This document shows, one piece after another, positions 12,042-64,000 of a stretch of DNA of 64,000 nt (positions are counted from its first letter, which is position 1; each line of letters opens with the position of its first letter). Source of the DNA: Patellaria atrata CBS 101060 (taxonomy: Eukaryota). The translations under genes and the position numbers were made by a program. The stretch covers positions 553,557 through 617,556 of the forward strand of contig MU006093.1 in NCBI GenBank assembly GCA_010093705.1. The letters run 5' to 3'. A model generated the notes under the pieces. That model was not told where the DNA came from, ran no database searches, and saw only the letters and a list, made by a program, of their open reading frames with translations.

Positions 12042-14298
12042 CTAAACCAACGTAAACGATTCCAATTTCACATTTCTCGCTTTCAGTGCATCTGGTAACA
12101 TTCTTGGATCCGAGTTCATGGTTTCTCCTGTCTCCTTGTGTCGGAAATAATCGTATACCTGAGGGTCATCGGCATCAGGTTTATGATCAAATCTTTCCCA
12201 GTCCTTTATTATTCCAAGTCGCGGATCATCGTCAGTGACCTTATGAGTCTCTTTATTATGGAAGCGGTATTTATATCGATTCCCATAGTCTCTGAACATC
12301 TGAACCTCCCATGGCTGTGGCAATGGCCCGAGAATACTGAAGGCGTCTTTTAAACCATCAACATAGCATTCGCCTATGACAATAAAAGTCTCAGGCTCCT
12401 TCTCTCTAAGCACAACTGGGACGTCGCAACCTAGGAGAACGCACAGAAAGTCGCCTGAGATGCAGATTCATTAGTATCACTCGATCAATTTCGTCAAAGG
12501 ACCTCTTACCAACTTGAGTGTCTGGTGGCGCCAATGCGACATAGCCGTCCCCCGTTTCGATATACGCGTGCCCTTTACAAAATTCAATGGTTTGGCGGAC
12601 ATGGTGGTTTGCTATGACCGGGTTGCTTGAAGGAGTATCTTCTTGCTTGCTGTCTTCTTCTAAGAAGTGAAGCCAATCAGGCTCCCACTCATCAAATAGG
12701 GGGTATATCCGTTCCCAACCTGCCCAGCGTTCACGAACCCTCCCTTTCCGAAGGGTGATTAGATGGGCATGCCTCCTTGCCCTCGCATCATCAGAATCAG
12801 ACAAAGCGGTCGTATTAGGTGTACGTTTTGGTCCCCACGTGCGGATCACTGTAAGAGGATGGTCATTTCCATCAAGTAGCGGACTGGACACACTAGTGAC
12901 GATTGAACCCCTTACACCTAGTACACGAAGGATATTCGGCGCCTCGTATGCGAAATGTGCGCGAGAATGACCCGCAGAGAACTGCCCACTACATGGGAAT
13001 TTTCTAGCAAGTTTTGCGGTGAGATCTGGCACCCACGAAGGCACATTGATCAATCGTCCATATTGACAAGTCCTTTGAATTAGCTCCAGCCTTTGAACAT
13101 GGTTCATATATACCAAGGTGGTTTCGGTATATACTTGTGGCACAGAAAGAGAATAGTCCGGTCGAATCTTTGCTGCCAGTCTTTTTGGAGTTAACCCAAG
13201 GATACCGTAGACATAATCCCTTGGATCAGTACATCTTCTCTTGTCTGGCAAGCGTACAACACGGTTGAAGGGAAGTCCTACGGACGGATTCGTAATCTTA
13301 GCTAAGAACCTCAATCTGCTTTCTATCTTCAATGGGGTATAGTGATTTTCTTTGAAACATGTAGCTGCTCGACGGAACAGCTTGAACATGATGGTATCCT
13401 GACCACACTGCATAACAGCATCCGGGTTTGCCAATAATATTTCCTGAATTATCCACACACGATTGAACCACTCTCGGTTAAGAAGCAAGTCGATAGCATC
13501 CCAAGTTTGAGTGCAAGAACAGACCTTAATTCTCGGATCATTCCAATTTCTCTCCACAGCATCCGGTGAGGGGCATAGTGAACCAGTCTCCAACAGTTCG
13601 ACTTGTTTCCCAATGTATTTTATTGTTTCCAGCGCCTCGTGGCTTGAATCTGATTCTGGTCCAAGCCAGGCAATCACACGAGAAGCAGACGAGTATATAT
13701 CAGTCATTCGACGTACTTGGCTCTCTCTTTCTTTAAAATTATTTTGGTCGATGCAGATAGCATCTATCCATAATATGCGAGATGACGTTGGATTGCGGAG
13801 GTACGACAGTGCTAGATGCAATCCTTTTCGAACTTCTAACTCCTTCAGTTCGACAGATTCTCCTATTGTAGTTTCTCCCACCAATAGACTGTCATGCTCG
13901 CTGGACTCGCCCCATACATAGGACAGAGCCTCATATCCTGTTTCGCGCAGTCTCACGTCGTCTTCGAAGGCTGTGTAAGACGAAGGTGGATCAATACTTG
14001 CTGAAAAAGCCCACTGCCAGCGGCCGGGGTCCGGTTCACGGGGATCCTCGATTATAAACCGCTCCTCTACAGTGACATGTGCCCGTAACGGCTCAGAGAG
14101 TTTTCGGTTCAGCTCCTGCAAGGACAACTCTGACTTTGCTGTTTTCCTCCATTCGGCGAGGCTTGCAGAGAATATTCGAATACGGATCTCTTCGTCTACC
14201 TCTCCCTTTACAAGCTCAACGAGACGGATATCAGTTGACGGGTTCAGCAGAGGTGAATAGGTGTACTTTTCCAGCGGACGAGGCTCTGTGTCCGCCAT
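12042..14298 (-). CDS. HET-domain (heterokaryon incompatibility, HET-6-like) protein
   Basis: Motifs IRLVEL, YEALSYVWG, LWIDAICIDQ, ERESQVRRMTDIYSSA, WFNRVWIIQE, DPRDYVYGILG, PSWVPD and IGECYVDG. Intron 12455-12509. First ATG at 14298 (MADTEP). Confidence 0.92.
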
Positions 14299-15554
14299 TT
14301 CTCTGAACCAATTCACTGGTGGAATCAACGAAACTTGTTCAATCCTAGAGGGGTTGCAGTTATGGCGACGTATAAAAAGTTCAGGTTTAACTTTTCAAAG
14401 GTGAAGCTTAGGGATGAAATATCAGAGATCCCAGCCGCTTCCCGCTGAAGTAGGGATTGGGGGCCAACAAGGCTATGTGTGGGGTGATCATGAGGGGTAC
14501 ATAATGAGGCTCCAGGCGCTATCTGTGTTTCTCACCTGTCCCAGTACGATCTAGACGTATATTCGCGGGTCACCAACATTTACAAATAGAAAGGAAGTGT
14601 GTACTTCCGTACTAGTCGAGTAACTACGCAAAGTTGACAGTTAATATTCATTATAGCAAATATAGGATCGAGGGAAGCCTAGATTGTCATTTAGCATAAG
14701 AAATACTCTATGTCTTAAACAAAAAGAGCGTACGAGTTGAAAATCCAGTTGGTGGTTTTCAGATTTTTCGCACCTTCAGGGGTTGCAATAAACAACAAGC
14801 ATGAGAAACCGCTTATCCACAAGTAGATATATCCCGAGACAGCTGGTTTTAGCGTCCGTTTAGTTTGATCCTCAAAAATACTACCCGTCTATATTTACTT
14901 TCTAAGTTTCGCCCACAAGTTTTCCTCTAATTCACCGTTTACATTATGGTTTAGACGAGAATGAATTGCAGACTTTTGAATAGCTGGTAGAACCAGTCAT
15001 TAATCTCAGTTCAATTAATAAACTACTATAAGTCTTTTTATAGGACTAGGAATTAAGCAAAAGAAGATTGAAATTAGGAAAAAATAACAAAATGAAACTC
15101 GCACTCGTGAGAGGGACGTCTTACTTGAATCGCCTGGGCATTTTTGGTAATCACAGTAAAATTTCAAAGTATGAGGATGCCACGGAGCCTGTTCTTCTTC
15201 ATCTGACGTAATAACTGAGTTATATCACTATCTACAGCTCACTAAGCGCACGTATGCTGTCTCAACTTATCCATTTTGTGGTTTCATGGCAAACAACACC
15301 ATCGATGTTTAAATTAGCTATGTAGTCATAAACTAAGTCATGAATTGCTAAAACTCATCTAGCTTTTTCATCGTGTATGCGATGATCTAATAACATACCC
15401 CACAAGGGTTGGGGAACTGCCATGTATACGCACTAGGCATTCACATAATCCCAAAAAATATGCTTTTTCCCATGTACCAATACGTCTAGTGACGGACCAA
15501 ACCATACTTACAAAATACAAATGGGCATCTCACTGAACTCTCAATATTTCCTGA

Positions 15555-58832: not shown

Positions 58833-60350
58833 ATGAAAGTCCTCAAATCATCGTTATTTAGCTGTATTTCCTGTAGGAATCATCTCTTTAGGACCTTTGA
58901 GCTACCGCCAATGCACACTTCCATGCGATCATATACCCGACCGTCAATTGCTCCGAAACCGTATCTCGATATAAAACATATTCGTCAGAACCCAGGACTG
59001 TATGCTCAGAACTGCATTGACCGTAATTACAAGGCACAAAGCAATCATTCATGGCGGATACTGGAGCTATTCGAGCAATGGAAATTATGTCAAGAAGCTG
59101 GAAGAGGACTGCGAGAGCGAAGCAATGCTCTTCGCGCACAACTATCTTCTCCGTCCGAGTCGTCCTCTACGACCAGAGACAGCATACTGCAAAAGTCGAG
59201 AGAAGTTAAGGGCAAATTAGGAACAATTGAGCAGAAAGAGAAGTCCCTGCAGGATGAAATGGAATACCTTGCATTGCAGCTTCCCAATCTCAGTAGCGTA
59301 CAAACTCCGACTGGAAACGTCCCTGAGGTCTTGGGATACATTAATGAGCCCTTGAAGCTAGAATCCACTGGAACGGACAGAATATGCCGGTCGCATGTAC
59401 ACATAGGATCAGAGCTCAGGTTGATGGATTTTGCTGGAGCCGCAACCGCATCCGGTTGGGGCTGGTATTATTTGATAAACGAGGGCGCTCTCTTGGAACA
59501 GGCTCTTGTTCAATACGCGTTAAATGTTGCTATGCGGAGAGGATGGAACGTTGTATCACCGCCGTCGATCGTATACTCCCACATTGCCGCTGCCTGCGGC
59601 TTCCAGCCAAGAGACCAGCATGGGGAGCAGCAAATCTATAGCATAGAGCAAGCAGAAAAGGACAAAGCAAAACCACCACTGGTACTCGCCGGTACGGCCG
59701 AAATACCATTGGCCGGAATGAAGGCAGGTGAATATCTTGAGGAGTCCGAATTGCCATTAAAAACAGTAGGTATTAGCCGGTGTTATAGGGCGGAGACTGG
59801 GGCCCGTGGTGTGGATACCAAAGGCCTCTACAGAGTTCATGAATTCACAAAGGTCGAATTATTCGCTTGGACTTTGCCGGACCTACCTTCGGAGGAGCAC
59901 TTTACAACGAATGACGAATTACACTCAACAGTCGTTTTCGATGAGATAATATCCATACAGAAAGAGATCCTTGAGAACCTTGGACTTCACTGTCGGATTC
60001 TGGAAATGCCCTCGGCTGACCTTGGCGCAAGCGCTGTCAGAAAACAAGACATTGAGGCTTTCTTCCCTTCGCGGAGAGCAAAGGACGAAGGTTGGGGTGA
60101 AGTAACTTCAGCTTCTATCTGTACAGACTACCAAAGCCGCAGACTGGGGACAAGAGTGCGGTTCTCAAAACAGTGTAGGAAATTTGACTTCCCTCATACT
60201 GTTAACGGAACTGCTCTTGCTGTACCACGAGTAATTGCCGCCATACTGGAAAAACACTGGAGTGAGAACGACAAGTCGGTGACTATCCCTGAGGTATTAA
60301 GACCATATATGGGTGGCGTTGAAGTAATACGAAAGCGAAAATTATCATAA
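58833..60350 (+). CDS. DIA4: Seryl-tRNA synthetase, mitochondrial-type
   Basis: Motifs LPNL, LEQALVQY, LAGTAEIPL, CYRAETG....TKGLYRVHEFTKVE, DIEAFFP, EVTSASICTDYQSRRL and HTVNGTALAVPR. Basic presequence-like N-terminus. Confidence 0.92.
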   Translation: MKVLKSSLFSCISCRNHLFRTFELPPMHTSMRSYTRPSIAPKPYLDIKHIRQNPGLYAQNCIDRNYKAQSNHSWRILELFEQWKLCQEAGRGLRERSNALRAQLSSPSESSSTTRDSILQKSREVKGKLGTIEQKEKSLQDEMEYLALQLPNLSSVQTPTGNVPEVLGYINEPLKLESTGTDRICRSHVHIGSELRLMDFAGAATASGWGWYYLINEGALLEQALVQYALNVAMRRGWNVVSPPSIVYSHIAAACGFQPRDQHGEQQIYSIEQAEKDKAKPPLVLAGTAEIPLAGMKAGEYLEESELPLKTVGISRCYRAETGARGVDTKGLYRVHEFTKVELFAWTLPDLPSEEHFTTNDELHSTVVFDEIISIQKEILENLGLHCRILEMPSADLGASAVRKQDIEAFFPSRRAKDEGWGEVTSASICTDYQSRRLGTRVRFSKQCRKFDFPHTVNGTALAVPRVIAAILEKHWSENDKSVTIPEVLRPYMGGVEVIRKRKLS

Positions 60351-60809
60351 TATATGAAATGAAGGATAGATCTAACAGCTCACTTGCATATTCTATCAGA
60401 AATAAAATACCCATTAATATAAATGGAGCTCACTAGATCACCAGGCCTGTTATATGACTCCACGGTGACTTAGCTTACATTCGGTTTCCATGTTCTCCTT
60501 GTCAGAGAGTTTGTACAATATTGTTCGCTTAAAACAGAAAGAGAAGTTGCCCTTCCCATACAGCAGAGTGCAATGTCGAAAACGGTCAGAACGAACAGTA
60601 TACAGAAATCGGTAAAGCGGGTGTACAGCTATCGGGAAGACCGAATTTCACGAATATTAAGACAGAACTTTCAGGTCAATTTGTGGCCGACATATGATTT
60701 TTATCAATACTTTAAGCTAACTAATACAGCATACAAAAGTATGAGATTCAGGATACAAAGACTAAGACTAATATCAAACGTACATTTATACAGCGCCTGG
60801 TATCATTCC

Positions 60810-62582
60810 TTATCTTCCAACTCCAACATCCATGTCAACACCATAGTGTTTCAGGAATTTGCCCCAGACGGCACAATGTTCACGCTCACCAATCGCAATT
60901 AGCCACAAAACTCTCCCAGCCCCATCTTCCCAATCTATGGGCCGTACACCATGAGCATCTTTGTACTCTGGTGCGGTTCCAATATAGCTAGGATCGACGG
61001 TATTTATGGCTACACGGTCTTTCATCCACGCCCTATAGGCCTCTGTTTCTGTGATCATGTTCAAAGCCGCTTTCCCTGCTGAACTGGGAATCATCTCGAG
61101 TAGGCCTTCCCGGGACGAGACATTAACAATTTACGCGAGGGGTTTGTTGCGTACAGTGTACCTCTCGGATGTTGAGTACCCTATTACTGGCAGCAGCTCG
61201 TGGCATAGAATCAGCGGTGCAGATATATTGGCCGAGAGCGCGATGATGATATCCTCGTACGGAATTTCCGAACGTGACCGTACCCGAATGAGTTTGTACG
61301 GGCATTGGCTTCAGTGGTATCATCACCTGAGGAATCTTCGCTCGAACGGGCCCCTCTCTCCTCGTATACGGGCTTTGTACATATTTCCTCTCACTAATGT
61401 CGAGCTACGGCTACCAGTAAGTAGCAATTTTTTCTCATTTTGTAAAACCTTTCTCTCCTCGTCAACTGTATCCGTCGAGGTTTGGGTAGCATTGGTGATC
61501 AATATGTCTAATCCGCAGTCCCATTTTCGTAGTATCTTCTTTGTACAAGATACTAAATCAATGGCGTCTCTGGCGTGTCTAAAACCAGCGCCGATAACCC
61601 TCAACCTACCTTTCCACAAATCGAAGTCTGGCTTTATGGAGTATCTTTGTACAGCATCCTGAGGATACCGAGTGGTTGCAATGACTGAGCCGCCACATCG
61701 GAGCACCCTCAGTGCTGTATGATAACCCAGATTTACCCTTGCCCCGGTAATCAATGCTACTTTTCCTTGCAGATTCAAAGCATTAGGCAATGAAAGGTTG
61801 GACCCTGCGATATTCAATCTGCCGCATGGTACGCACAAGCGATGGTACGATGGATGGGATACGGTGAGTTTGTACCGGGAAATATAGCAAAAGTTCAACC
61901 TTTGCCCTTTTCGAGAAGCCGTTTCGGTACGGAAACTTTGAACAGTCTCACCCCATGTTGGCCCTTTCCATACGTCTTCCTCTGCCGATGGTCCGGCTGT
62001 ACTGTAGGATCCTGGCTCGGTACAGGACTTTGTTGTTTCCATTTCATCGGCTAGTATCGCCGTCTGTTTCATAACATCGGAGAATGAGCTTCATAACGTT
62101 AGCCCCTTTGCTCGCATCAAGTAGTCGTACAACCGAAGCGCGGTATCGAGATCCTTCTGTGATGGTACGGAAATTGCATCCCTAGCCTGTCTCTGCGTCT
62201 CCAATTCTTCCTCGTCTTGGTCCATACCGAGCTTAACATCCATCTCTTCCTCATCTAAAAACTCAAAATCTACTCCATCTATCTCAACTCCTCTCGTATC
62301 TCCTATCGATCGTAAATGATTCAGTATCTTCTTCCTCGTCCGTTCGTACACATTGCGATTGACGCTACGGGGAATCGCCGTACGGTTGTCATCCAGTATG
62401 AGGTGCTCTGCTATCTCATCTGCGAAAGGGGTGGAATGAGGCGGGAGTTCGTATGCCAGTACGCTAGGAACCAGATTTTTGTCATAAGTCAGTTCGTCGC
62501 GCCGCATTTGAATTGCGATGCTACGTCGGTCTTCGTTGAACATAGAGTCTTCGTACTCTTTAGGGGTGCTTAGTTCAACCAT
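60810..62582 (-). pseudogene. Extended SDR-family oxidoreductase pseudogene
   Basis: One frame carries CY....H..Y.RLC..C, ALITGARVNLG, TTRYP, EIPYED, IVNVSSREG, KAALNMITET and PIDWEDGAGRVL. It is interrupted by stops at 62091, 61323, 61320, 61311 and 61131. Confidence 0.85.
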
Positions 62583-62878
62583 TCCCAAGGTGTTAAGTGT
62601 ATAAGTGTATGGATTTGTGATAAGGATGTGCGCTTGTATAGGGGGTGTGAATGAGTGACGGTAAGGTAATGGTTGTATAGAATGTGTATCACATAATGGT
62701 GAGGCATCAACATTAGCAAAAAATAATCATGTTACACTTGATAGATGTCTTACCCACTTTACGTGCTGGGCACTCTTCCCTAAGAAGATCAAAATTCACA
62801 CACAACACCAAACCACGTGATCTACCCGCTCTTAGCTCTTGCACCTTATATACCAAATTTTCTGCAGCTATTTCCATA

Positions 62879-63041
62879 ACCCCCGGGAGTAGCTCAGTGG
62901 AAGCGCCACTGGGCAACATCGACAGCCCCGGGGGTCGACTCCTCAAGGGGGCAAATAGCCCCCATACCTCGGGCCCATTTGGGGCAGCAGATGTACCACG
63001 TCGTCTTCGGAGGGCGTGGGAACTGTTTTGCTTCTTTTTTT
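62879..63041 (+). ncRNA. Putative RNA polymerase III structured ncRNA or tRNA-derived SINE-like unit (~160 nt)
   Basis: TTATATA at 62846-62852; A box TAGCTCAGTGG at 62890-62900; B-box-like GGGTCGACTCC at 62932-62942; four hairpins including a C(UUCG)G loop at 63005-63010; T7 at 63035-63041. Confidence 0.6.
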
Positions 63042-63370
63042 ATTCAAACATTTATGTTATGCATAGAGTGGATGCGCGATGCTTTTTGCAGGTTCGAGTA
63101 CTGACGTAAGCGTTATATGTATGGCTTGGGGATTATGGACACGAAGTGGGTGAAAAATATATAAGTCGAAAATATGTTACTATTGATTTATACAAGATAA
63201 TTATTATATAGACAATACCTCCTAAAGATCTTGCATTAGGACTCGTAGATTAGACAGTCCAATACAGATTCACTCACAAGATCCCAACCACCTCCCCTAA
63301 CTCCAATGACAAGACCAGAAAACTTCATTCCAAACCTTTGGACCCATTGTCCGCCCTCCCAATTATACCC

Positions 63371-63715
63371 TCACAACCCCATCCCAACCCCAGCAGCCAC
63401 AGCACCCCATCTAAGCAGTTCCTGCAACCCCACCGTCGCAGTCGGAGCCGCACCCGAACTCGTCGGCGTAACAGGTGCTCCGACCTCCGTATTTGCAGAT
63501 CTACTCGTTGTCGCTGGGCCTGGAGGTGCACTGGTACCCGTGCCAGGGAGCATCTCTGTGTTCGCGGTTCGCGATGTCACGGCCGGGGCGGAAGAGACGG
63601 AGCCGATGGTGGTTGGACCAGCGGACTCGGTGTTGGCGGTGCGGGTGGTGATGTCCTCTGCGTAGGCGGTTGTGAGGAGGGCGAGGACGGGGATCAGGAT
63701 CGTGAGGAGATACAT
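63371..63715 (-). CDS. Small secreted Ser/Thr-rich, probably GPI-anchored protein with three RxANTE repeats
   Basis: Signal peptide MYLLTILIPVLALLTTAYA; repeats TTRTANTE, TSRTANTE and TSRSANTE; C-terminal SSGAA plus hydrophobic tail. Confidence 0.8.
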   Translation of the reverse strand: MYLLTILIPVLALLTTAYAEDITTRTANTESAGPTTIGSVSSAPAVTSRTANTEMLPGTGTSAPPGPATTSRSANTEVGAPVTPTSSGAAPTATVGLQELLRWGAVAAGVGMGL

Positions 63716-64000
63716 AGTGTATGGTTTTTTTATGGGTGGTGGGTTGGTTCGATAGTGTTGAATGGATATAGAGCTCTCTGGTAGATTGTGGACGGTCAAT
63801 TGGGTGTTGAACAGAGCTCAGAGGGATATCTTCAGTTAATTGCAAGGGTTCGGTTTGTTGGAGGTTGGAGGGTGGTATGCGAGTCGGTTGGCTGGGAATC
63901 TAACACGGTATAAATATTCTCTGCATTCCCCTGAATATACTGGGCAGGCTCTGGTAGATTAGCGACGCTGTTACTTGACGTAGGTGGATCATCAGCATAT

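Follow-up and report, generated by a model that had tools for sequence, protein, structure and literature searches.

Genomic setting of the locus

The window, that is the whole 64-kb stretch of DNA analysed here, is gene-dense, and its long open reading frames (ORFs) belong by Pfam to ordinary genes (HET, Fungal_trans_2, GH64, seryl-tRNA synthetase and kinases). The ORF with the HET (heterokaryon incompatibility) domain occupies positions 12406-14394 on the minus strand and is consistent with a filamentous ascomycete. No transposon protein was detected by Pfam among the long ORFs of the 64-kb window, and none of the 21 long ORFs encodes a reverse transcriptase or a Rep/Hel protein.

The unit described in the following sits on the plus strand, within a gap of ~790 nt that is flanked by two minus-strand genes. 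It lies ~300 nt upstream of an SDR-like gene, whose first ATG is at 62582-62580, and ~330 nt past the stop of a small ORF that is rich in Ser/Thr and begins with a signal-peptide-like sequence. An active Pol III unit this close to the start codon could influence the SDR-like gene. The features of the unit are, in order of their first position:

62848..62855, strand not assigned: TATA-like element, 24-31 nt upstream of where transcription should begin
62879..63041, plus strand: predicted Pol III unit as a whole, ~162 nt, bounded by the predicted start and the last T of the run
62879..62935, plus strand: head fold, a 9-bp outer stem around a 9-bp hairpin, not a cloverleaf
62890..62900, plus strand: A box TAGCTCAGTGG, exact match to TRGCNNAGTGG
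62932..62942, plus strand: B box GGGTCGACTCC, 10 of 11 positions matching GGTTCGANTCC, 1 mismatch
62947..62963, plus strand: GGGGGC-aaata-GCCCCC hairpin, predicted by folding
62981..63041, plus strand: 3' module, made up of a long hairpin closed by a C-UUCG-G loop (z -4.02), a T4 and the T7
63035..63041, plus strand: T7 run, where Pol III is predicted to stop and where the repeat family ends

Promoter elements and predicted terminator

A sequence-only reading had proposed a gene of the type-2 Pol III build at this site, with a TATA about 30 nt before a GC-rich island, a perfect A box, a near-consensus B box and a T7 terminator. All of these elements were found at the positions it had given. 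The consensus sequences used are TRGCNNAGTGG for the A box and GGTTCGANTCC for the B box. The A box at 62890-62900 matches exactly and is one of two exact matches on both strands of the 64 kb, while the B box at 62932-62942 contains a single mismatch and follows at a distance of 42 nt, counted from start to start. The base composition predicts 0.0007 occurrences per window of an exact A box that has a B box with one mismatch or none 25-55 nt behind it.

The predicted start at ~62879 follows from the distance of 10-11 nt at which Pol III should initiate ahead of the A box. Termination by fungal Pol III requires five or more T. The oligo-T run found ~145 nt downstream of the A box, the T7 at 63035-63041, is the sole plus-strand run of at least six T between 62000 and 63724, and its role as a terminator is predicted.

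Upstream of the unit, the sequence TATATA at 62848-62853 is located 26-31 nt ahead of the GC-rich island that begins at 62879. On the minus strand the TATA-like element has the sequence TATATAAG, on the plus strand TATATACC, and it precedes the first ATG of the divergent minus-strand Pol II gene by 266-273 nt. It may help to position TFIIIB, or it may serve that gene as its core promoter; it reads better on the minus strand. In the same intergenic region, positions 62812-62823 (ACCACGTGATCT) include a CACGTG palindrome and are similar to ACCACGTCGTCT in the 5' arm of the 3' hairpin. This CACGTG may act as a site of the E-box type for the divergent minus-strand gene, within its promoter.

Folding of the predicted transcript

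Folding of 62870-63041 yielded -77.2 kcal/mol, compared to -60.4 +/- 4.1 kcal/mol for shuffled sequences (z -4.11), and 0 of 200 shuffles were equal. The head contributes a fold of -34.1 kcal/mol (z -3.64, 0/200 shuffles). Its outer stem, formed by 62879-87 and 62927-35, comprises 9 bp with 100% complementarity and encloses the 9-bp hairpin, as the earlier reading had described. The long 3' hairpin with the C-UUCG-G loop, also part of that description, was recovered by folding with a z of -4.02 (0/200 shuffles); its palindrome ends at 63019, and the T4 is found at 63026. The proposed GGGGGC/GCCCCC hairpin was recovered as well, but the middle stretch that contains it (62945-62983) is not significant, with a z of -0.95 and 27/200 shuffles.

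An imperfect inverted repeat flanks the whole unit, with arms at 62868-62880 and 63056-63068 (CTATTTCCATAAC / GTTATGCATAGAG) that are complementary at 10 of 13 positions. As the right arm lies beyond the 3' edge that the family shows in other copies, this repeat is probably due to chance.

The unit matches neither a tRNA nor a known Rfam family

ARAGORN predicted 0 tRNAs in the 64-kb window and none in 62800-63100 with thresholds lowered to 85%; its sole prediction at thresholds of 80% was a 'tRNA-Pro' of 159 nt that includes a 67-nt intron. Over the 64-kb window, none of the 4227 families of Rfam 15 reached its gathering score. With the limit relaxed to E <= 10, a search of 501 nt produced chance-level matches only, the best being frnS with 17.4 bits against a cut-off of 60, and the 95-nt stretch 62872-62966, which includes the head, produced four chance-level matches, with the tRNA model absent. 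The earlier statement that the sequence does not form a cloverleaf and is not a tRNA is thus borne out by both programs. The same holds for the absence of U6, 5S, SRP, RNase P and MRP signatures: these RNAs gave no Rfam match at E <= 10, and vault RNA, Y RNA and snoRNAs gave none at or near the gathering score. A C/D or H/ACA snoRNA, U6, SRP RNA and RNase P/MRP RNA were considered as candidates and rejected, as their boxes are absent by eye and Rfam gave no match.

The head has retained its A and B boxes while the stems of a tRNA are gone. Judged from the sequence, this combination suggests selection for promoter activity, rather than the decay of a tRNA pseudogene.

Past the T run, at 63063-63101, the sequence AGTGGATGCGC approximates a copy of AGTGGAAGCGC from the head, and 24 nt further on GGTTCGAGTAC fits the B-box consensus with one mismatch. 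A second, shortened tRNA-type relic in the same orientation was therefore considered at 63063-63101 and found to be unsupported: in local alignment with the head this stretch attains a score of 19, and 186 of 620 other 100-nt windows scored as high, as did 46 of 500 shuffles.

Copy number of the 3' module

Copy data were taken from contigs of two sequencing runs (X1 and X2) of one sample and one study, which were aligned to 60000-64000 at an identity of at least 90%. Both runs are probably DNA, and the contig depth is even. In these contigs the path of the window itself is interrupted within the 3' hairpin, where the first contig runs to 63033 and its successor starts at 63004, so that a 30-mer is exactly common to another locus.

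At least six other contigs of the same genome carry the 3' module 62981-63041 in whole or in part (45-61 nt), with an identity of at least 90%. Six other X1 records (2, 3, 4, 5, 6 and 8) show one to five differences from the module or parts of it, and X2 record 10 also matches it at 90% or more. Five of the six X1 records are at single-copy depth (312-328), while the sixth, a contig of 46 nt, has a depth of 759. At position 63015, the summed depth amounts to 4507.7 in X1, compared to 319.8 in the flanks (14.1-fold), and to 6063.7 in X2, compared to 458 in the flanks (13.2-fold). The 3' module is hence present about 13-14 times in the genome, a rough figure, as summed contig depth is not the true copy number.

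These copies bear directly on the earlier proposal of a single-copy, novel RNA gene. With the 3' module in at least six other contigs and at ~13-14-fold summed depth, the many copies of 62981-63041 do not support it. The depth bins from 60000 to 62947 are all single-copy, and the head (62879-62945) is therefore not repeated at an identity of at least 90%. Within the window there is no second copy: the best other blastn match comprises 22 nt at 86% identity (E 0.23), and a 26-nt probe from the head, allowed up to three mismatches, matched only itself across the window.

A separate depth pattern was observed in X2 at 63580-63676, within the small Ser/Thr-rich minus-strand ORF. Several contigs of 52-61 nt overlap there at depths of 4-326, and the depth rises up to 512-784, compared to 393-456. 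The pattern suggests a short repeat or a variant bubble within low-complexity coding sequence.

Searches for relatives in other collections

A pattern scan of metagenomes returned three loci, all in GC-rich DNA and with no likeness beyond the pattern itself, which corresponds to chance. Contigs of prokaryote genomes and viral contigs gave 0 matches each. Fungal DNA is scarce or absent in these two collections, and none of the collections searched is rich in it, so that the family may well extend beyond this genome despite the negative results. In the searchable literature, no paper contains a 15-nt motif taken from the 3' hairpin.

Other copies that might lie under mis-called ORFs were sought with the open plus-frame translation of 62867-63046 (P0001), whose comparison with 1.84 billion representatives gave two protein matches at E <= 0.001. 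Both matched proteins are internally repetitive, unrelated, and aligned in 8 and 5 short stretches, and they were rejected.

Edges of the repeated unit

The 3' edge of the repeat family is located at the T run. Behind 63029-63041 the loose ends of the copies disagree, with an agreement of 0.53-0.57, which is near the minimum for two to three sequences. The other copies continue into T-rich tails of differing length, roughly 16-30 nt, and then into unrelated flanks. These tails resemble decaying retroposon tails.

Upstream of the block conserved at 90%, the copies are less uniform. In two contigs the upstream loose ends resemble 62951-62980, with some 20 of 30 letters alike on visual inspection, and the GCCCCC arm together with the following TCGGGCCC recurs in both. 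In one further copy, the upstream 30 nt are unlike the window; hence, heads may differ or be missing in most copies.

Information on the 5' edge comes from a single further copy, which appears in both assemblies of the one sample. In X1 record 2 the module occupies contig positions 102-162, and X2 record 10 has 101 nt left to the contig end. With 101 nt ahead of the module, the contig of this copy breaks at the equivalent of 62880, assuming no indels. This position is 10 nt before the A box and matches the expected Pol III start. A contig break marks the point where sequence common to yet another copy begins, and repeat edges that match transcript edges are a hallmark of a retroposed transcript. 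The observations suggest a unit of ~162 nt with the edges of the predicted transcript, and they place the 5' edge of the family, as an inferred boundary, at the transcript start. A target-site duplication was not found: with a 6-nt seed, 62780-63130 contains no flanking direct repeat, a search that old or very short duplications would escape.

The contrast between a 3' module that is at least 90% identical between copies and a sequence just upstream that agrees at about 20 of 30 letters, or not at all, argues for a further explanation. The copies may be a non-mobile family of genes for structured, ~160-nt Pol III non-coding RNAs, in which the 3' hairpin and the oligo-U are functional (e.g. as a protein-binding module or as a small-RNA precursor), and the 5' heads serve mainly as promoters and drift. 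The strong folds of the 3' hairpin (z -4.0) and of the head (z -3.6) agree with such genes, as does the lack of a detectable target-site duplication in 62780-63130 with the 6-nt seed. The TATA-like element is suitably spaced for them, yet it suits the divergent Pol II gene at least equally. Hairpin RNAs made by Pol III are known from Neurospora (PMC3547838), but the head in the window offers no acceptor or T stem to RNase Z. The variable T-rich tails of the other copies, which reach up to ~30 nt, suit retroposon tails better than terminators, and in one other copy the repeat seems to begin at the transcript start and not upstream of it. Moreover, no Rfam family matches, and no homologue outside this genome was found in collections with hardly any fungal DNA. 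We therefore consider a non-mobile family of this kind unlikely. Its more specific form, in which the ~14 loci encode a lineage-specific Pol III RNA family of ~160 nt and not a selfish SINE, with drifting tRNA-box heads as promoter-leaders and a strictly kept, functional 3' hairpin, appears somewhat less likely still. If the 3' hairpin were a functional, conserved Pol III RNA, it would define a new fungal non-coding RNA family and bear on the origin of the Pol III-dependent small RNAs of fungi.

The position of the hairpin relative to the 3' edge bears on yet another explanation. Here, 62981-63041 would be the 3' terminus of a DNA repeat, either of the Helitron2/Helentron type or a non-autonomous derivative of it, or it would represent the tails of 5'-truncated LINEs, and the head would be a captured or adjacent tRNA relic. 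Two reports describe fungal Helitron2 elements and Helentron derivatives with a conserved 3' end and a palindrome 8-50 bp from the terminus, as well as variable terminal T strings, T-rich targets, no target-site duplication and a 3' end that is kept better than the 5' end (PMC5148889, PMC4067079). In the window, the end of the palindrome at 63019 precedes the 3' edge of the family (63029-63041) by 10-22 nt, and the other copies have T-rich flanks and differing upstream sequences, with no duplication seen. A subterminal or asymmetric inverted repeat is missing, however: the 13-mers of 62940-63034 have 0 inverted copies with at most one mismatch in the 62.9 kb upstream, and the 44 inverted copies at two mismatches are scattered. 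There is no 5' TC, as 62879-62880 reads AC, and the window contains no Rep/Hel or reverse-transcriptase ORF. Chance adjacency of the terminus to an A/B-box relic is estimated at ~1e-4, for ~14 copies in a genome assumed to be tens of megabases in size, within 100 nt downstream and in the same orientation. An origin of this kind also leaves the intact boxes beside vanished tRNA stems unexplained, and we regard it as improbable. The remaining probability belongs to mixtures of the explanations discussed here and to readings that we have not thought of.

A proposed SINE-like retroposon with a T-rich tail

The explanation that we favour is that 62879-63041 on the plus strand is one copy of a dispersed, low-copy, SINE-like retroposon of ~162 nt, headed by a promoter of the tRNA type and ending in a T-rich tail; we hold this to be about an even call. 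It builds on what is established at the locus, namely the promoter motifs with their spacing, the folds, the multicopy 3' module and the 3' edge at the T run. Two features of a SINE are present, the internal A and B boxes at the 5' end and the T-rich 3' tail of variable length. A SINE had been named before as an option, and the dispersed copies of the 3' module agree with it. Against it stand the failure to find a target-site duplication and the head, which is not repeated at an identity of at least 90%. A SINE is hence the best-supported reading, but it is not proven. We know of no T-tailed SINE in fungi.

For such an element, we infer transcription by Pol III, RNA-mediated spread and the existence of a partner element. 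TFIIIC would bind inside the unit, at the A box (62890) and the B box (62932), and TFIIIB would be positioned ~30 nt upstream, possibly aided by the TATA-like element. Pol III would initiate near 62879 and pass through the head, with its two nested 9-bp stems and no tRNA stem left, and then through the 3' hairpin. It would probably read through the T4 at 63026 and halt in the T7. The resulting RNA end, the hairpin with the C-UUCG-G loop and the oligo-U, may be recognised by the reverse transcriptase of the partner element for target-primed reverse transcription. New copies would then begin at the 5' end of the transcript and finish with T-rich tails of variable length.

If the family is a SINE, it would add a small, T-rich-tailed family to the few SINEs of filamentous fungi, which would help repeat annotation and would not be surprising. 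In addition, the conserved 3' hairpin would point to the retrotransposon that mobilises the family.

Comparison with known systems

The 3' termini of Helitron2 (FoHeli) and of Helentron/HINE elements resemble the 3' module in having a GC-rich palindrome tens of nucleotides from a conserved 3' end and variable T strings (PMC5148889, PMC4067079). T-rich targets, a variable interior and the lack of a target-site duplication are further points of likeness in these descriptions (PMC5148889, PMC4067079). In contrast to these elements, the unit in the window has neither a subterminal or asymmetric inverted repeat nor a 5' TC, and the elements themselves are not transcribed from internal A and B boxes.

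In Neurospora, milR-1 to milR-4 are reported as Pol III-dependent; a TATA-like element is required at milR-1, and milR-4 arises by cleavage of a transcript that contains a tRNA (PMC3547838). The unit resembles milR-4 of Neurospora crassa in that a hairpin RNA lies downstream of a tRNA-type Pol III promoter, here a predicted one, in a filamentous fungus (PMC3547838). The milR-4 precursors, however, contain real tRNA-Ala genes that are cut by RNase Z, whereas the head in the window is not a tRNA, and the Neurospora milR loci are mostly non-repetitive according to this account, unlike the repeated 3' module (PMC3547838).

SINEs that end in T runs or T-rich sequence are described for the Au-like SINEs of plants and for the afrotherian AfroSINE1B, and are mobilised by LINEs of the RTE clade (PMC6007223). 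These are plant and mammalian families with RTE-type partners, and they are compared with the unit here by their description (PMC6007223). In common with the unit in the window, they have a tRNA-type Pol III head, a length of less than 200 nt and a T run or T-rich 3' end in place of poly-A (PMC6007223).

Among filamentous fungi, low-copy, tRNA-derived SINEs of 140-493 bp are known from Aspergillus fumigatus (PMC5063351). Within this group, AfuSINE2 elements carry target-site duplications of 4-14 bp and heads that can be assigned to particular tRNAs (PMC5063351). In the present unit, the search for a duplication was negative, and the head is matched by no tRNA model. AfuSINE2-1a ends in ACT repeats (PMC5063351), the element in the window in a T run; the comparison of the two is one of description. 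The 3' part of AfuSINE2 is thought to be common to a LINE (PMC5063351). The likeness to AfuSINE2, as it is described there, extends to a filamentous ascomycete host, a head with A and B boxes that is followed by a body unrelated to tRNA, a size within the range of 140-493 bp, and a very low copy number (PMC5063351).
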